A stretch of DNA of 44,134 bases from an uncultured Gammaproteobacteria bacterium (GCA_964463055.1 CAYXAX010000003.1:1-44134), one strand, 5' to 3'; shown: positions 36,288 through 44,134, counted from the stretch's first letter. The notes: generated by a model from the sequence alone, not told the origin. Made by a program: numbers and translations.

Positions 36288-36860
<573 letters not shown>

Positions 36861-36919
36861 ACCATCCGTCGAATCACACGCGCCGTATCGGCGTACAGCC
36901 ATGGATACGTGACATCATC

Positions 36920-38662
36920 ATGATCAAACAACTGCATTACAAGCATGCTGCGCCGCGCCGCATGCTGTTGTCTATCGCCATCACACTGTGCATGTGTTTG
37001 ACTATGCCGCCGGCAGGCGCCACGGGCGCCGCCCCGCCGGCTGCCGCCATTGCCACAGCCCACCCCTTGGCCACCGCGGCTGGCAAAGAGATACTCACCG
37101 CCGGTGGCAACGCCTTCGACGCCGCGGTGGCTGTCACCGCGGCCCTGGCGGTGGTGGAACCCATGAGTTCCGGCCTCGGCGGTGGCGGATTCTGGCTGCT
37201 GCACACCGCCGACGACAACCGCAACACCATGATCGACGGACGTGAACGCGCACCACTGTCCGCGTCCCGTGACATGTATCTGGATAAGCACGGCGACGTC
37301 GTCCCCGGCCTGTCCATCAATGGCCCCCTGGCCGCCGGCATACCGGGCGTCCCCGCCGCCATGGTCTACCTGGCTCAACACTACGGAAAGCTGCCATTGG
37401 CGCGTTCCCTGGCCCCGGCCATCAACTATGCACGCCAGGGTTTCGCAGTGACCGAACACTACCGCGCCCTGGCACGCTTTCGCCTCGATGTACTGCGCCG
37501 ATCGCCTGCCGCCGCCGCAACGTTCCTGGTCAACAATGACGTGCCGCCGCGGGGGACAATCATCAGGCAACCGGACCTTGCCGCCACCCTGCAGGCCATC
37601 GCCAAGCAGGGAGAAAAGGGCTTTTACGCCGGCAGTGTTGCACGGCGCATGGTGGACAGCGTGCGTGCGGCCGGCGGCGTATGGCAAATGCAAGATCTGG
37701 AGAAATACACGGTGGTGGAGCGCAAACCCATCGAAGGCCGCTATCGTGGGACGCGCATCATCGCGGCGGCCCCGCCGTCTTCCGGTGGCATCGCCCTGGT
37801 GACCATGCTCAACATACTCAGCGGTTACGACCTCGATAACATGGACGACGTGACCCGCAAGCACCTCATCATCGAAGCCATGCGTCGCGCCTACCGCGAC
37901 CGTGCCGAATATCTGGGTGACCCTGATTTCGTCACTATACCGGTCAAACGCCTCACGCATCCTTACTACGCCGCCGGCCTGCGCAACTCCATCCGCCTGG
38001 ACCGAGCCACTCCCAGCGCCTCACTGCCGGGGATCAGCGAACATCCCGAAGGCGACAATACCACCCATTTCAGTATCCTGGATCAACAAGGCAACCGGGT
38101 GGCGGCCACCCTCTCGATTAACTACCCCTTCGGCTCAGGCTTCATTGCCCCGGACACGGGGGTGCTGCTCAACGATGAGATGGATGACTTCTCCGCCAAA
38201 CCGGGCACACCCAACGTATATGGTCTGGTGGGCGCCGAGGCCAACGCCATCGCACCGGGCAAGCGGCCGCTGTCCAGCATGACGCCAACGTTCCTGGAGG
38301 GTGAGCACGGGGTGGCCCTGCTGGGCACGCCCGGAGGCAGCCGCATTATCACCATGGTGCTGCTTGCCACCCTGGATTATATGCAAGGTCACCCCCCCGA
38401 GGACTGGGTCAAGCTACCGCGCTTTCACCATCAATATCTGCCGGACGAGGTCCAGTTCGAACCCGGCGCCTTCACCGAACGGGAACAACGGCAATTGAGG
38501 GCCATGGGCCATACACTCAAACCGCTGAGTCGCCGCTACGGCAACATGCAGGCCATCCTGTGGCAAGTCGATCACAACAAGGTGATGGCCGCCAGCGATC
38601 CCCGCGGCGATGGCAAGGCCGTGGTGGTGGACGTGACAAAGTCCATGACGGCAACCCAGTAA
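36920..38662 (+). CDS. ggt: Gamma-glutamyltransferase
   Basis: 580 aa with a signal-like N-terminus. The autoprocessing threonine context is GDNTTHFSI, and downstream Ntn-hydrolase GGS/PGG motifs are present. Confidence 0.88.
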   Translation: MIKQLHYKHAAPRRMLLSIAITLCMCLTMPPAGATGAAPPAAAIATAHPLATAAGKEILTAGGNAFDAAVAVTAALAVVEPMSSGLGGGGFWLLHTADDNRNTMIDGRERAPLSASRDMYLDKHGDVVPGLSINGPLAAGIPGVPAAMVYLAQHYGKLPLARSLAPAINYARQGFAVTEHYRALARFRLDVLRRSPAAAATFLVNNDVPPRGTIIRQPDLAATLQAIAKQGEKGFYAGSVARRMVDSVRAAGGVWQMQDLEKYTVVERKPIEGRYRGTRIIAAAPPSSGGIALVTMLNILSGYDLDNMDDVTRKHLIIEAMRRAYRDRAEYLGDPDFVTIPVKRLTHPYYAAGLRNSIRLDRATPSASLPGISEHPEGDNTTHFSILDQQGNRVAATLSINYPFGSGFIAPDTGVLLNDEMDDFSAKPGTPNVYGLVGAEANAIAPGKRPLSSMTPTFLEGEHGVALLGTPGGSRIITMVLLATLDYMQGHPPEDWVKLPRFHHQYLPDEVQFEPGAFTEREQRQLRAMGHTLKPLSRRYGNMQAILWQVDHNKVMAASDPRGDGKAVVVDVTKSMTATQ

Positions 38663-38829: not shown

Positions 38830-39432
38830 ATGGCGGCCACACGCCCGACGGCGGACAGCGGTGTCTCGAGCCTTACCGTACCCGCCGGGTTGACGTTGAC
38901 ATTTCTGACTTTGCAGCACCACATGGAACAATCACAGCATCGCTACATCCTAAAATTTTTGATCGGCTCCGCGTTATTTTTCTTTGTCGGGACGATACAG
39001 GGCGTGCTGCAGGTATTGCCGCCCATCCGCGCCTGGCTCGACTCCATCGGCAGCCCCATGGCGGGACCCGGACACATGATCGATCCCCTGGCCCATGCCC
39101 ATATCAACGTGGTGGGCGGGGTGGTGGTCATGGCCATGGGACTCAGTTATTATCTGTTCCCCACCATTTCGGGCAAGCCCATACACTCCGTGCGCCTGGC
39201 CAATCACTCCTTCTGGTGGATATCCACCGGGGTATGCCTGTTCTACATCACACTGCTGGTTTTCGGCACCATCGAAGGTAATCTGTTACTCCACGACCCT
39301 GCCTCCGTCCCCGCTGTCCATCACTACTATGCCCCGGTCCTGAGTGTCGCCTCCACCGTCATGGGCATGGGGTTCTGGATCTTCGTCGCCAATATCCTGC
39401 TCACCGTCAGAGATATTTACAAAAAACCATGA
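38830..39432 (+). CDS. Four-helix membrane protein resembling the N-terminal helices of heme-copper oxidase subunit I (CcoN/NorB-like fragment)
   Basis: KFLIGSALFFFVGTIQGVLQVLP ... AHAHINVVGGVVVMAMGLSYYLFP follows the helix I/II pattern of HCO subunit I, including the helix II His and YY..P. It is only 170-200 aa. Alternative start at ATG 38923 (MEQSQHRY). Confidence 0.55.
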   Translation: MAATRPTADSGVSSLTVPAGLTLTFLTLQHHMEQSQHRYILKFLIGSALFFFVGTIQGVLQVLPPIRAWLDSIGSPMAGPGHMIDPLAHAHINVVGGVVVMAMGLSYYLFPTISGKPIHSVRLANHSFWWISTGVCLFYITLLVFGTIEGNLLLHDPASVPAVHHYYAPVLSVASTVMGMGFWIFVANILLTVRDIYKKP

Positions 39433-39971
39433 CCAAGCCCTGCGGCTGCCCGGACGACTATCCTGATTGGCACAATAAGGATGTGGACCTGGGCGGACAA
39501 TGCGTCCACGTCCTGCCCATTCCAACGTTCATGCACATGCCCCTGGCCTATTCGCTGTATGCCAAACGCCAGCAGCAGATTATCGATCAACTCCAGCTAA
39601 ACGAGCGCTGGTCGGGATTCACCATGACCCGCACCGGCGTGCTGCGCGGTCGCATCATGCGACTGCTGGAGTTATCTGAATCCCCCGCACGGCGTATCGA
39701 GTATCTGCCCCGGCCGTTTCATCTGCGCGGTTACCTGCACATGGGCTCAGTGAGCAATATCCGTCTGCCGTTGCATCAAATGTCAATGGATATGCTGGAG
39801 AAGGGCCGCCGCGCCCAGGAACTCTATCTGAGTTATCTGACATGCCCCGAGTGCCGCGGCGAAAATCGACCGGATAAAATCCTGCTGCTGCGGCGCTGGA
39901 TAGAAAGCCCCGCCCTGAAAAAGCGAGCTGAAAAAGAGAGATCAAAGAGAAGAGAGAAGCAGGCCAAATAA
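39429..39971 (+). CDS. Cys-containing soluble hypothetical protein, translationally coupled to the oxidase-like fragment
   Basis: ATGA overlap with the upstream ORF. 180 aa with N-terminal PCGCPDDYPDWH, an internal Cys (GGQCVH), C-terminal CPEC and a Lys/Arg-rich tail (KKRAEKERSKRREKQAK). No family recognised. Confidence 0.6.
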   Translation: MTKPCGCPDDYPDWHNKDVDLGGQCVHVLPIPTFMHMPLAYSLYAKRQQQIIDQLQLNERWSGFTMTRTGVLRGRIMRLLELSESPARRIEYLPRPFHLRGYLHMGSVSNIRLPLHQMSMDMLEKGRRAQELYLSYLTCPECRGENRPDKILLLRRWIESPALKKRAEKERSKRREKQAK

Positions 39972-40043: not shown

Positions 40044-40460
40044 TTAGCTTTGGGCACGGGTGGACTGCGGCGCTGCCAGCAGGGGAAAGCGCAGATAACC
40101 GATATCATCCCCCTCCTGAATCTGCACGTTCAATTCTTCACTGGACGGATTATGGACCGCCACGGCGCGGCGGAATACGCCCATATAACCGTCCTGAATC
40201 ATCTGCTTCCATGGGTCCGTATCATCGATGCGCACCGATACGATAAAGTCATGGGCCGGCCCACCCTTAGCGCGGGAAATAATCAAAATAAATTCGTCCA
40301 TGCCCGCGACCACCGGCGTCGGCCGACTCTGCATCTCCACCGTATAGTTCTTCCATTTCTGCGGCGGAATCTTGGCCGTGGCCTGTTCCTCACTGCATGC
40401 GCTGAGCAACAGCGCACACAGGATGCATAACCAAATCACTCTAGGGTTCATCTTTGGCAT
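40044..40460 (-). CDS. Lipoprotein, FixH/YtkA-like Ig-fold domain suspected
   Basis: Lipobox LLSAC after a hydrophobic signal, about 115-aa mature beta-rich domain. Last gene of the ccoG-like operon. Start at 40460 or 40451. Confidence 0.5.
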   Translation of the reverse strand: MPKMNPRVIWLCILCALLLSACSEEQATAKIPPQKWKNYTVEMQSRPTPVVAGMDEFILIISRAKGGPAHDFIVSVRIDDTDPWKQMIQDGYMGVFRRAVAVHNPSSEELNVQIQEGDDIGYLRFPLLAAPQSTRAQS

Positions 40461-40746
40461 ACTTCTGCAGGTAAGCGACCAACCGCCGTATTTGAGTTTC
40501 AGTCATGGGGGCAAGCGCTTTGGATATCCGATGCTGCTGCATCCTCAGTACCACATTGGGCCACTCCTCGGCCTTGTGAGTATCGGGTTGCGGCGGCGCG
40601 TGGCAATCGGAGCAAAACTGTCTCAACAATTTTTCTCCCGGCGACGACGGCTGCGGGTAGTGATTTTGATTTTCACCGACCTGCCCGCTCTCCTCGTTAC
40701 CGGTGCAGCCGATCAGCAGCATCGATGCCAGCAAGAGTCCCCTCAT
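40441..40746 (-). CDS. Lipoprotein monoheme c-type cytochrome
   Basis: Start at MRGLLLASMLLIGC (lipobox LIGC). Single CSDCH heme-binding motif and a downstream Met candidate in VVLRMQQH. The ORF-track start at 40995 overlaps the upstream gene. Confidence 0.65.
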   Translation of the reverse strand: MRGLLLASMLLIGCTGNEESGQVGENQNHYPQPSSPGEKLLRQFCSDCHAPPQPDTHKAEEWPNVVLRMQQHRISKALAPMTETQIRRLVAYLQKYAKDEP

Positions 40747-40885
40747 GGGACGCTGAAGACCCGTCGACCGCCGCCACTTCGCCCCGGGCAACAGCCCGAA
40801 TCGCTCATTTACCCAAGTGTAAACTTTGCTTTCCCGCCGATCCCCGTCTTGTCTGGCATGCGCCGATGGCCTTTTCAATCGCCTG

Positions 40886-41329
40886 TCAGCTCTTCGAATC
40901 ATCCGTCTGCTGCTGCGATTCGGCCTGCTTCTCCTGCATGGCCTGTTTTTTTTCCTTGCGTATATGGCGCAGGTCGACCATCCAATAGATGGCAAAGGCC
41001 ACCACCGTGACGTAGATAACGGCTCCGGGCAGACCCCAGTCGAACCACGAACGGTGAAAATCGGGACGGTTTCCCCAGAAGGGGAAACTGAAGCCGACTG
41101 CGATTACCAACAGCAGCACGAACAAGGCCACAAACCAGTACGGAATATGGTGCTGGGAATCGGGAATCTTCTCCACCATTTCCCAGTCTTCGAGGCCACG
41201 CTTTTCAAGACGCTCTTCCTCGCTCTGGTATCCAAAGTGATCGTCGCGCAGTTCACCCCAGCCGGGTTCGTCGACAGGCTTCGGCGTCTTGGATTGCTCG
41301 TCCGTATCAGAGACCGTGTCTTTTACCAT
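40886..41329 (-). CDS. Two-TM protein with cbb3 oxidase FixP/CcoP N-terminal-like anchor, no heme motif
   Basis: EKIPDSQHHIPYWFVALFVLLLVIAVGF resembles the FixP_N pattern (..LP.WW..F....). It has a second TM and an acidic N-tail and basic/Gln-rich C-tail. There are no Cys residues at all. Confidence 0.5.
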   Translation of the reverse strand: MVKDTVSDTDEQSKTPKPVDEPGWGELRDDHFGYQSEEERLEKRGLEDWEMVEKIPDSQHHIPYWFVALFVLLLVIAVGFSFPFWGNRPDFHRSWFDWGLPGAVIYVTVVAFAIYWMVDLRHIRKEKKQAMQEKQAESQQQTDDSKS

Positions 41330-41332
41330 GGC

Positions 41333-42667
41333 TCATGATCTGTCTTTGTTGATGGCTACGTGCTCTATGCGAAAATGACCCTGCCAGCCGCTGTCGGATT
41401 TGGCGTATATCGTCACTGGATAGATGCCGGGCGGCAGAGTATCGTCGACGTGCAGCCATACACTCTGGCGACCGGCGGTGGAGAAATCAACACGCTTCGT
41501 GGACAACGCATAAGTCCCCTTGGGCAATCCCTTCACCTGCAAACTCACCGTACCCGGACTGTACAGCTTATTGGCCACGTCGATATGGTAATCCTGTATC
41601 TGGTGACTGCGATACATTTCAGCGCGGAACGCCGACAGATTATAGGGTTGGTAACTCCATAGCCCCCAGGCAAACAGCGACACACCGATGAGGAACGCAG
41701 GGAGTACCCAGCCCACGCGCTGTGAAAGTGTTGCCAAATGCTGGCTGCTGTGCTTGTTGACGCCGGGGCGCTCGCCGAACTTGAACGTCAACAGGCCGGG
41801 CACCTGATCCTTTTCGTGGAGTGAATTGCATGCGGTGATGCAGGCGCCGCAGTTGGTACAACTGTCATAGGTAGCGGTATCCCGGGGATCGATGGTTACC
41901 GGGCACACGGTCAGGCAGAATTTGCACTTGGTGCATTCTTCGGCACGGTCGGCATCATACTCCACATGGAGGGTCTGCTTGGTCTTGAACAGGAATTGCC
42001 AGATTCGGTAAATGCACATGTAACGGCACACGTAATAACGCATCACCGACAGATTAACCAGGGTCATAAACACGAACATGGTGTAGACCCAATGCAGCGA
42101 GCCGGACAGGCGCGCGTCATGCTGGAAGGTGAGGAACGACCACACCGCACCCGGCGTGTAGAAGTACAACAGGGGTATCAGCGAAAATACCATGGAGACC
42201 CCCAGCAGCTGCGCCCCGAGAAGCGCCCAATTGAGCACTCTGTTCTTACCCTTGGAGACACGGCTCTTGCCGAAACTGTCCCAGTCGATGACCGCACGTT
42301 TTCCCAGTGTTCTCAGGGTGGTCTTGTTGGCCCAGGATGACAGGGTATTCTGCGGACAGGCCCAGCCGCAGAACGCCGTGCCGATAGTCGAGTACAGCAA
42401 CACCATGAAGCACGCCACGGACAGCCACATCCCAAACACCAGGAAAAAATCGGAAAACCAGACTTGACGTCCAAGGACCACGAACCCCGACGATACATCG
42501 ATGCGAAACAGACCGCTGATCGGAATCAGGACAAGCAGTGCAATGAACAGGGTCTGGGTGGTGATGCGCTTCCAGTGAATGTCTTTGCCGGACTTGGCTT
42601 GCAGCACCGCCCCCTGGGAGGACTCGACCACCACCGGGATCTTCTGTAACAGTTCGTCTCCACTCAT
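41333..42667 (-). CDS. CcoG/FixG-family 4Fe-4S ferredoxin-type membrane protein
   Basis: CGWACPQN after the TM helices, two cluster motifs CTKCKFCLTVCP and CTNCGACITAC, and a C-terminal Ig-like domain. Start chosen at MSGDELLQ after GAGGGGTGAG. Confidence 0.75.
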   Translation of the reverse strand: MSGDELLQKIPVVVESSQGAVLQAKSGKDIHWKRITTQTLFIALLVLIPISGLFRIDVSSGFVVLGRQVWFSDFFLVFGMWLSVACFMVLLYSTIGTAFCGWACPQNTLSSWANKTTLRTLGKRAVIDWDSFGKSRVSKGKNRVLNWALLGAQLLGVSMVFSLIPLLYFYTPGAVWSFLTFQHDARLSGSLHWVYTMFVFMTLVNLSVMRYYVCRYMCIYRIWQFLFKTKQTLHVEYDADRAEECTKCKFCLTVCPVTIDPRDTATYDSCTNCGACITACNSLHEKDQVPGLLTFKFGERPGVNKHSSQHLATLSQRVGWVLPAFLIGVSLFAWGLWSYQPYNLSAFRAEMYRSHQIQDYHIDVANKLYSPGTVSLQVKGLPKGTYALSTKRVDFSTAGRQSVWLHVDDTLPPGIYPVTIYAKSDSGWQGHFRIEHVAINKDRS

Positions 42668-43002: not shown

Positions 43003-43134
43003 ATGGTTCAAAATATCGGTCTTAACATATTAGTTCCTATCGGCGTGTTTTTGTTCCTGATCATCGGCGCGGCCACCATGGCCAGCGTAGCGCTCAAAGA
43101 CGTTGTGGCCCGCAGGAAAAAACAAGTGCATTAA
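43003..43134 (+). CDS. Candidate 43-aa single-TM protein (below the ORF-track cutoff)
   Basis: GGAGG lies 7 nt upstream of the ATG. Translation is MVQNIGLNILVPIGVFLFLIIGAATMASVALKDVVARRKKQVH (hydrophobic helix, basic tail). A hairpin follows at 43218-43245. Confidence 0.4.
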   Translation: MVQNIGLNILVPIGVFLFLIIGAATMASVALKDVVARRKKQVH

Positions 43135-43249: not shown

Positions 43250-44134
43250 CTAGCGTTGCATTTCGGTGTCTCCCGCACCTGACCGAAGCACCCTGTCCAG
43301 GGGGCTGACGGCCTGTATTCTGTCGCGGTACATACGGGCCTGTTGATCGTCGCCAGCCTGGGCCTCCAGATGCCATAACGCCTGCAGCGCAGGCACGTGA
43401 TCGGGCCTGATACGCAGAATGGTCTGCAGTGCCTTGCGCCGCGTCAGACCATGCGCCCCGGCCCGGGACAGAGTGGCGAACATCTGGTCTGCCAGGCTGA
43501 AACTGACCCAGCGATCACTAGGATTGCCCTCATAGGCCAGACGCAACAGGCGCTGGGCACTGCCCTCCATCCCCTCCAGACTGGCCAACCAGCTGCGTGT
43601 CGCCAGCTCCGTGGACAGATAGCTGCGCTCGAATGTCTCTTTGTCCGCGGCCGCTACCCCCAAGGCCTTCTCAGCCTGATCCACACCGGGACGCAGCTTC
43701 AGCAACATGTCGAGCACCGAGGCAGTATCCAGGTCATCCCGGTAGCGGGCCTGAGGCAGGCGGTATTCAATGTACGGCGCCCACTCATCCTCCACCGGGC
43801 CCGGCGGGACGCGGATAGCGCCCCAATAGCGCCCCAGCCAGGTCCATGGACCTTCGCCGCCGGTAATGCGTTGCTGTGTGGCCTCGGAAGTACCGTGCAT
43901 ATGACCGAGCACCGCCGTCATCGGGTCCAACGCCCCCTGCGGTCCCACCAACGCGAATCGAAACCCGTCGATGTACCCTACCGCATTGGGAAAGACGTGC
44001 TGAAACGTGCGCATCACGGCCTCCAGTGATGCCGGGTCGAACTGGTTGAGGGCCAGCCACTGGACGAAGAGGCCTCCCGGCGCGAGCCGTGCCCGGACGC
44101 GCTGAAACTGCTGCACCGACAGCAGGGCACTGCG
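43250..44134 (-). CDS. Spermidine-synthase-like protein with helical C-terminal extension, 5' end outside the window
   Basis: The frame stays open to the window edge (...SALLSVQQFQRVRARLAPGGLFVQWL, typical of the post-SAM-binding region of SpeE-like methyltransferase folds). The C-terminal ~180 aa are helical-repeat-like. Confidence 0.55.
   Translation of the reverse strand, partial: RSALLSVQQFQRVRARLAPGGLFVQWLALNQFDPASLEAVMRTFQHVFPNAVGYIDGFRFALVGPQGALDPMTAVLGHMHGTSEATQQRITGGEGPWTWLGRYWGAIRVPPGPVEDEWAPYIEYRLPQARYRDDLDTASVLDMLLKLRPGVDQAEKALGVAAADKETFERSYLSTELATRSWLASLEGMEGSAQRLLRLAYEGNPSDRWVSFSLADQMFATLSRAGAHGLTRRKALQTILRIRPDHVPALQALWHLEAQAGDDQQARMYRDRIQAVSPLDRVLRSGAGDTEMQR

Follow-up and report, generated by a model that had tools for sequence, protein, structure and literature searches.

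We describe a four-gene operon on the minus strand of a 44,134-bp contig from an uncultured gammaproteobacterium (GCA_964463055.1, CAYXAX010000003.1). The window analysed is this entire contig, and its end falls 1.5 kb upstream of the operon. The first gene encodes a relative of CcoG, the Cu(II)-reducing protein of cbb3 oxidase maturation, and we see about an even chance that the operon serves a divergent cbb3-type oxidase of the same locus as its dedicated CcoG-type module for copper reduction and assembly. This reading draws on CcoG homology, cofactor motifs, predicted topology and fold, synteny with the oxidase and the conserved copper ligands of that oxidase, while Cu(II) reductase activity, the identity of the client oxidase and all protein-protein contacts are inferred. 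The module represents a variant form of the CcoG system in its own right, one that comparative genomics has noticed and that has never been characterised. Its four genes are as follows.

42667..41333, minus strand: CcoG-like gene, 444 aa, with an ATG start and a GAGGGG ribosome-binding site; its closest homologues have the same length.
41329..40886, minus strand: cysteine-free protein with two transmembrane (TM) helices, 147 aa, starting after a 3-nt gap from the CcoG-like stop codon.
40746..40441, minus strand: monohaem c-type cytochrome lipoprotein, 101 aa, after a 139-nt gap, with the lipobox LLIGC and a single CSDCH motif.
40451..40044, minus strand: beta-sandwich lipoprotein, 135 aa, with the lipobox LLSAC and an 11-nt overlap with the cytochrome gene.

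An earlier reading of the window (the sequence-only reading) had listed these genes, their spacing, the CSDCH motif, both lipoboxes and the lack of cysteine in the two-TM protein, and all of this proved exact when the sequence was read again. Judged from their conservation, they are real genes in a real operon and not chance open reading frames (ORFs). When reference proteins were searched by tblastn against 85 sequences (84 fetched loci, here given L numbers, plus the window), the CcoG-like and two-TM genes were found together in all 85 and the gene for the 135-aa lipoprotein in 82. With few exceptions among the loci, the first two genes are separated by -4 to +10 nt, a spacing typical of translationally coupled genes, and the two are therefore probably coupled. 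A promoter and terminator scan of the region from 38.6 to 43.4 kb gave counts no higher than those from shuffled sequence. The partners of the CcoG-like gene do differ from ccoH, ccoI and ccoS, as the sequence-only reading held.

The first gene is, by comparison of its product with known proteins, a full-length but divergent CcoG homologue that belongs to a separate, well-conserved subfamily. Pfam searches gave Fer4_5 (PF12801) at 34.6 bits against a cut-off of 22 and Fer4_18 (PF13746) at 48.6 bits against a cut-off of 27, the latter matching over profile positions 58-112 alone. As positive control we used the canonical CcoG from a Ralstonia ccoI-ccoS-ccoNOQP-ccoG locus, which scored 145 bits with Fer4_18 and 108 bits with FixG_C (PF11614), whereas no hidden Markov model (HMM) match to FixG_C was found in the window protein or in any of 120 homologues. 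The profile check proposed along with the sequence-only reading was thus divided in its outcome: the two Fer4 profiles recognise the first gene product, FixG_C does not, and for the downstream products FixP_N, FixH and YtkA are below threshold or without a match. More sensitive comparison supports the relationship. In hhalign, the CcoG-like family aligns with Ralstonia CcoG over residues 57-425 (probability 99.85%, E = 1.2e-30), pairing FCGWACPQ (FCGYACPQ in Ralstonia), CRYMC, both CX2CX2CX3C motifs and the C-terminal region. All 12 conserved cysteines are invariant in 119 homologues, among them C214, C218, C245, C248, C251, C255, C270, C273, C276 and C280. An AlphaFold2 (AF2) model of the protein (predicted local distance difference test, pLDDT, 83.5) combines five long helices with a ferredoxin-like domain and a beta-sandwich at the C-terminus (residues 342-438), and its top match in the PDB is 2r39, a FixG-related protein (E = 7.4e-6, target TM-score 0.71). 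The alignment, the invariant cysteines and the modelled fold together carry the assignment, and the CcoG-like call of the sequence-only reading is borne out by them.

The likeness to CcoG/FixG of ccoGHIS operons extends to the architecture. Five TM helices are predicted in both, along with the cysteine pairs CX3CP (FCGWACP in the window protein) and CRYMC and two [4Fe-4S] motifs, all of which would face the cytoplasm, and a C-terminal immunoglobulin-like (Ig-like) domain, which in the window protein is modelled and would be periplasmic. There are also differences. The window protein is only 21-30% identical (about 25%) to canonical CcoGs and scores one third of the CcoG equivalog cut-off; canonical CcoG has CcoH, CcoI and CcoS as partners, whereas this one has the two-TM protein, the lipoprotein and, optionally, the cytochrome; and canonical ccoG adjoins ccoNOQP, whereas the gene described here is linked to divergent ccoN and ccoO genes. 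A Fer4_5 membrane domain with CX3CP and cytoplasmic [4Fe-4S] clusters is also found in NapH, NosH, MauN and YccM, and the NapH profile matches the window protein at E = 5e-10. NapH and NosH work with the periplasmic ferredoxins NapG and NosG, and ferredoxin partners of that type are absent here. In addition, NapH, NosH, MauN and YccM lack the C-terminal Ig-like domain (for YccM: PMC7558416). CcoG of R. capsulatus reduces Cu(II) specifically and carries two Cu sites, two [4Fe-4S] clusters and an Ig-like domain in the periplasm; its loss lowers cbb3 activity (PMC7558416).

In connection with the oxidase, the sequence-only reading had presented the operon as an orphan, with no oxidase, CcoI or CcoS. 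Among the larger ORFs of the window that were scanned we indeed found no P1B-ATPase, no ccoS and no full-length ccoN. For the locus as a whole the claim is not supported, since the contig stops inside a gene that in relatives closes an oxidase cluster. Only the 3' end of this gene is present, which we identified by tblastn with the protein from L002, a locus on a 3.0-Mb contig. The L002 orthologue scores 101.6 bits with NF037959 against a cut-off of 40, and the gene is the last of the oxidase cluster before the CcoG-like operon in L001, L002 and L003. Measured by CcoG-like identity, the syntenic relatives are L003 (86%) and L001/L005 (72%), all of which have the window's flanking ggt, coaD, rsmD, two M16 peptidase genes and ftsY. 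In these relatives, upstream of the major facilitator superfamily (MFS)/spermidine-synthase-like gene and on the same strand, are genes for CcoN-like and FixO-like (CcoO) proteins, small membrane proteins, a monohaem cytochrome and an FGE-sulfatase-domain protein, such that ccoN-like, ccoO-like and some 10 further genes lie directly upstream; the gene order in L002 is the same. The features concerned are listed here, the first in the window and the others outside it.

43250..44134, minus strand, window: 3' end of an MFS/spermidine-synthase-like fusion gene, the last 294 codons of a gene for a protein of some 860-890 aa, truncated where the contig stops.
695-2101 of L002, with orthologues: divergent CcoN, haem and CuB ligands kept.
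4361-4642 of L002, with orthologues: CcoS/FixS-like single-TM protein of 93 aa, PF03597, with a conserved W...QFDED.
5575-6645 of L002: FGE-sulfatase-domain protein, a constant member of the oxidase cluster.
7378-9960 of L002: MFS/spermidine-synthase-like protein, a constant member of the oxidase cluster.

Across the loci with about 10 kb on both sides, a divergent ccoN-ccoO cluster accompanies the operon in 29 of 36, either directly upstream, ahead of the MFS/spermidine-synthase-like gene, or inverted downstream. The operon thus looks orphaned because the contig ends 1.5 kb upstream of it, and partner genes not seen where a contig stops cannot be taken as missing. When the truncated upstream gene was used to search metagenomes, it returned only an 82% relative without the upstream part (L087) and a 72% fragment; a 95% relative, L089, lies on a contig of 5.1 kb.

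An oxidase just outside the window had been named as the finding that would make this an ordinary maturation locus. In substance the relatives place one there, and CcoG homology fits as well, yet the oxidase is non-canonical and the locus is no ordinary ccoGHIS. The linked CcoN scores 228 bits with TIGR00780 against a cut-off of 583, the linked CcoO 64 bits against 201, and canonical CcoH, CcoI, CcoS, CcoQ and CcoP were not detectable in the window or within 10 kb in any fetched locus. Candidatus (Ca.) Tenderia has a separate canonical ccoNOQP-fixGHIS, and for the Tenderiales a separate canonical CcoNOQP with FixHIS has been noted, with canonical FixG in only three of them and missing from most (10.1101/2022.05.06.490989). 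The low identity to canonical CcoG given above points the same way. Nor is the CcoG-like gene a decaying copy, as strong conservation across a family of 936 homologues (E <= 1e-5) shows. That the operon is the ordinary ccoGHIS set of a canonical ccoNOQP, or its decayed remnant, is refuted by the tests run and keeps hardly any credence.

The divergent oxidase would nevertheless need copper. In all 23 divergent CcoN sequences H60, H207, Y251, H257, H258, H345 and H347 are kept, that is, the six histidine ligands and the cross-linked tyrosine, and the CuB ligands among them argue for a copper-requiring client. The position equivalent to P. stutzeri E323 is glutamine in the same 23 sequences, a possible difference in proton handling. 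All 47 members of the CcoS-like family match PF03597 (best E = 1.3e-5), and the oxidase cluster therefore has its own CcoS-type factor, a second maturation factor close to the operon. We also considered the MFS/spermidine-synthase-like protein as a dedicated copper importer and rejected it, as the MxxxM and HxxxM motifs of CcoA are not conserved. In Sideroxydans and Gallionellaceae, "proximal" and "distal" cbb3 clusters have been distinguished, of which the distal is highly expressed (PMC8788666, PMC10734462), and the oxidase of this locus is probably of the distal type.

The second gene product carries a conserved N-terminal motif, WGE..DHFGY..EER..KRGLEDWE, followed by a first helix with the pattern PYWF...FPFWGxRP. 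The FixP_N helix is the element that anchors CcoP to CcoN, and the sequence-only reading had likened this helix to it. The pattern is present, but the FixP_N score of the window protein is below threshold (13.3 bits, E = 0.069, cut-off 24.9), compared with 82.9 bits for the control CcoP; in the family as a whole, 11 of 77 members match FixP_N, at best with E = 0.0016. Alignment of the family with Ralstonia CcoP by hhalign gave E = 0.11 and fell on the ELNNPLPRWW motif. A clearer relative is a protein of 185-210 aa whose gene comes immediately after that of CcoO in the linked oxidase operon (hhalign 93%, E = 2.9e-7), the alignment spanning WE..IP, the TM helix and FPFWGxRP; the L002 copy of this protein itself matches FixP_N weakly (E = 0.0046). 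From these sub-threshold scores, taken with the kinship to the post-CcoO protein, a FixP_N-like anchor in the two-TM protein is plausible, short of demonstrated.

The further proposal that CcoP has been split here into an anchor gene and a haem gene is not supported. CcoP/FixP combines a FixP_N anchor with a dihaem c domain; both the two-TM protein and its post-CcoO relative resemble it in the P-W/Y-W-F ... P-x-W-G pattern and in sub-threshold FixP_N scores, whereas the two-TM protein has no cysteine and no haem domain and differs from CcoP in a second TM helix and in a conserved cytoplasmic N-domain of its own. Searched exhaustively with phmmer, a set of 1.84 billion representative proteins yielded only 44 relatives of the two-TM protein, all of 52-172 aa, with no haem-domain fusion and no CcoP among them. 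The separate cytochrome has one haem motif, scores best with DHC instead of the CcoP domains, and is dispensable. Three observations speak against the split: the lack of fused relatives, the lack of cysteine in the two-TM protein, and a one-haem cytochrome that can be missing.

The third gene product is best described as a class I or DHC-type c cytochrome with predicted haem attachment at CSDCH. It reaches 22.2 bits with DHC (PF09626), exactly the gathering cut-off and over half of a dihaem profile, and matches Cytochrome_CBB3 weakly (E = 0.0016). The family also has a conserved RMQxHR, which probably supplies the methionine ligand of the haem. Of 82 loci, 47 have an ORF with CxxCH between the two-TM and lipoprotein genes; in the other 35 (about 43%) it is missing and those two genes are adjacent. 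The cytochrome is an optional component of the module. The 139-nt spacer in front of it (40747-40885) is common to the close relative L087 and measures 136 nt in L089, and it is absent in L003, where the two-TM and cytochrome genes overlap. The window's cytochrome ORF retains an upstream in-frame start, MIRR..., that is homologous to the start used in L003.

The last gene of the operon had been called FixH/YtkA-like. For this lipoprotein the fold part of the claim stands, as a periplasmic type of beta-sandwich, and the family part does not. Neither Pfam nor NCBIfam matched the window protein, with nothing for FixH (PF05751) or YtkA (PF13115) at E < 0.1; three of 79 family members match FixH and three YtkA, at best with E = 0.018 and 0.026, respectively; and none of 120 homologues carries a precomputed Pfam domain. 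The family has its own conserved motifs, RP..GMNEF and W.QAIQDG..GVYRRA, and a homologue also exists in Zetaproteobacteria. The AF2 model (pLDDT 88.1) is a seven-stranded beta-sandwich, for which PDB matches below E = 1e-3 are limited to two entries of CrdA from H. pylori (9ll2_A, E = 2.5e-4, TM-score 0.50-0.66). By its model, the protein is FixH/YtkA-like at the level of fold only; such a fold is generic and does not establish family membership. Like CcoH/FixH, YtkA and CrdA it would be a small periplasmic beta-sandwich, here encoded beside a CcoG homologue, though it is predicted to be lipid-anchored, in contrast to the TM anchor of CcoH/FixH.

CrdA is a periplasmic copper-resistance protein of H. 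pylori, and it being the best structural neighbour of the lipoprotein raises the question of whether the operon serves general copper homeostasis. A CcoG/YccM-type cupric reductase would in that case support copper tolerance or other cuproenzymes, and its adjacency to the oxidase would reflect shared regional ancestry. It is consistent with this that CcoG homologues are also found in bacteria without a cbb3 oxidase and that CcoG influences copper tolerance (PMC7558416), and that the module keeps a conserved chromosomal position near coaD and ggt (38 and 32 of 87 loci, respectively). The CrdA likeness itself is limited, as a TM-score of only 0.5-0.66 in a very common fold is joined to a lack of conserved metal-binding residues. 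Moreover, the linkage to the oxidase survives inversion of the cluster (L017, L020, L022, L029 and L073) and spans Gamma- and Betaproteobacteria, which argues for functional coupling with the oxidase; the module always includes the FixP_N-like partner that is related to an oxidase-operon protein; and no copA, cueO or cus genes were seen nearby. We regard a general homeostatic role as very improbable.

Downstream of the operon, and convergent with it, lie two further genes.

38923..39432, plus strand: truncated CcoN-like membrane protein, 169 aa, corresponding to about residues 290-410 of CcoN.
39429..39971, plus strand: soluble protein with four conserved cysteines (Cys4 protein), 180 aa, with CxCP...YPDW and LTCPxC, overlapping the truncated-CcoN gene by 4 nt.

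The truncated CcoN matches COX1 at 41 bits over profile positions 308-405. Aligned to 3mk7_A, 8smr_E and 9g6b_A, it keeps the HxH of helix 10 (LAHAHIN) and a conserved PGH, and lacks the CuB ligands and the histidine of helix 2. Conservation bears out the suggestion that this oxidase-like fragment next door is a partner of the operon, as the gene lies within the flank in 56 of the 61 loci with enough downstream sequence. We rejected a recent origin of the truncated gene by fragmentation of the oxidase gene nearby: its product shows 25-27% identity to the divergent CcoN and to a canonical CcoN alike, and this equal distance marks it as an old and itself conserved family. The Cys4 protein, with a weak Bact_hydrolase match (E = 6.8e-4), was found in 59 of the sequences searched. 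In L090 these two genes directly follow the operon, so that all six lie on one strand.

If the operon is a CcoG-type module for the linked oxidase, it might work in the following way. The CcoG-like protein would sit in the inner membrane with its two [4Fe-4S] clusters and two cysteine pairs facing the cytoplasm and, like its R. capsulatus counterpart, would reduce Cu(II) to Cu(I), which would then be inserted at CuB in the CcoN of the oxidase. The two-TM protein, translated together with the reductase, may tether it, by way of a FixP_N-like helix, to nascent CcoN or to the truncated CcoN. The beta-sandwich lipoprotein could dock on the periplasmic Ig-like domain of the reductase, and the monohaem cytochrome would be an optional periplasmic redox accessory.

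The CcoG-like family is encoded in 227 GTDB species-representative genomes. From a scan of these we kept 80 loci, all of them from metagenome-assembled genomes (MAGs), including Gammaproteobacteria (Chromatiales, Thiotrichaceae, Ectothiorhodospiraceae and Ca. Tenderia) and Betaproteobacteria (Gallionellaceae and Sideroxydans). The nearest GTDB genome to the window is that of L005, at 72% identity, and MAGs of Ca. Tenderia are represented by L051, L061 and L070. For Ca. Tenderia electrophaga, the region had been noted as a "polyferredoxin and three hypothetical proteins" that cluster in expression with ATP synthase, the three hypothetical proteins being higher at 310 mV (PMC5371394). A later study drew a conserved 26-gene cbb3-1/cbb3-2 region in the same organism (its Fig. 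2B), in the order CcoN, CcoO, ..., "CcoG cbb3 maturation protein", a hypothetical protein, a monohaem cytochrome, two hypothetical proteins and a truncated CcoN, and labelled it "a sort of alternative complex IV" (10.1101/2022.05.06.490989). Genes 21-26 of that region have an order identical to the window's, with CcoN, CcoO, a monohaem cytochrome and others upstream. The window comes from a different gammaproteobacterial lineage, and the Ca. Tenderia papers assign no function beyond "alternative complex IV" and leave the partner proteins unanalysed. The later of these studies cites an earlier mention of the region in freshwater iron oxidisers (its reference 34); Emerson 2013 and Kato 2015 contain no description of it.

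These reports lend weight to a second way of viewing the locus, namely that the six proteins are working subunits of the "alternative complex IV", or else make up a membrane redox complex of their own, and that they connect periplasmic cytochromes, a membrane haem held by the truncated CcoN and cytoplasmic Fe-S clusters and have no assembly role. We consider this unlikely, while giving it appreciable weight. The six genes form the tightest unit at the locus, with the truncated CcoN in nearly all informative loci and, in L090, no oxidase nearby. The truncated CcoN also keeps the haem-ligating HxH of helix 10 and another conserved histidine. The family occurs mainly in lineages of lithoautotroph type with periplasmic electron uptake, such as Ca. 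Tenderia, Gallionellaceae, Sideroxydans and Chromatiales. The label given to the 26-gene region (10.1101/2022.05.06.490989) and the co-clustering of the polyferredoxin and hypothetical proteins with ATP synthase, with a response of the latter proteins to cathode potential (PMC5371394), would likewise suit subunits of a respiratory complex. On the other hand, the redox motifs of the CcoG-like protein are all predicted to be cytoplasmic, with no cofactor site visible in its TM or periplasmic parts; the cytochrome is absent in 35 of 82 loci; the truncated CcoN lacks the second axial histidine, that of helix 2; and electrons would have to move steeply uphill from a c-type haem to reach a [4Fe-4S] cluster. 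The more specific version, in which the six genes encode a transmembrane redox complex not described before, with a membrane haem linking periplasmic cytochromes to cytoplasmic Fe-S clusters, we hold to be improbable.

Several observations weigh against a copper-reduction and assembly module. Seven of the 36 well-covered loci have no oxidase cluster within 10 kb, and in L090 the operon travels only with the truncated-CcoN and Cys4 genes, again with no oxidase cluster within 10 kb. The cluster is seen in relatives only, as the contig of the host itself ends at 44134. The CcoG-like protein scores 106.8 bits with the NCBIfam CcoG model TIGR02745, compared with an equivalog cut-off of 316.7. No conserved cluster of cysteine, histidine or methionine that would suggest a copper site was found in the lipoprotein family. 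The oxidase cluster has no copper exporter (CcoI), which leaves no explanation for how Cu(I) would reach the periplasmic side. Lastly, regulation by electrode potential together with energy-conserving complexes in Ca. Tenderia (PMC5371394) fits a structural or electron-transfer role at least equally well.

Upstream of the operon, in the 580-nt gap before the CcoG-like gene and divergent from it, there is one more small gene.

43003..43134, plus strand: single-TM protein of 43 aa (MVQNIGLNILVPIG...RRKKQVH).

A perfect Shine-Dalgarno sequence, AGGAGG, stands 7 nt before its ATG. By tblastn, more than 25 loci carry the gene in the same position and on the opposite strand, with identities of 42-93%, and it is called as a gene in L003, L004 and L089.

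On the other side, coaD and ggt (36315-38662, plus strand) lie beside the module, as they do in many distantly related genomes at the frequencies given above; this adjacency may reflect a chromosomal position that has been conserved or, possibly, a functional tie to thiol chemistry in the periplasm. The remainder of the window, from 1 to 36000, is ordinary chromosome with tRNA-Pro, an NtrBC-type pair, pilBCD, coaE, zapD, a mutT/thiE fusion, bioF, ftsYEX and M16 peptidases, and no further respiratory or copper genes were seen among the ORFs scanned there. Rfam and tRNA scans of the window found the tRNA-Pro at 178-254 and nothing else. Two adjacent plus-strand ORFs at 4469-6571 and 6603-8621, of 700 and 672 aa, have no Pfam or NCBIfam match and are followed downstream by a cluster of sugar-modification and glycosyltransferase genes.

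No specific cupric reductase other than CcoG is known from bacteria, and the physiological electron donor and partners of CcoG and the role of its periplasmic Ig-like domain are open (PMC7558416). The FixP_N-like membrane protein and the beta-sandwich lipoprotein offer concrete candidate contacts of CcoG-type proteins. The module further marks a divergent cbb3-type oxidase with an accessory set of its own, made up of CcoS-like, CcoG-like, truncated CcoN, FGE-like and MFS/spermidine-synthase-like proteins, and such oxidase genes are among the most highly expressed in the two cases studied (PMC5371394, PMC8788666). The lineages that carry it are largely uncultured and include electroautotrophs and iron oxidisers. 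Should the six genes encode a redox complex after all, it would work alongside the divergent cbb3 oxidase in a capacity beyond mere assembly, and could provide a route for electrons into or out of the cytoplasm in autotrophs that oxidise iron, sulfur or cathodes.

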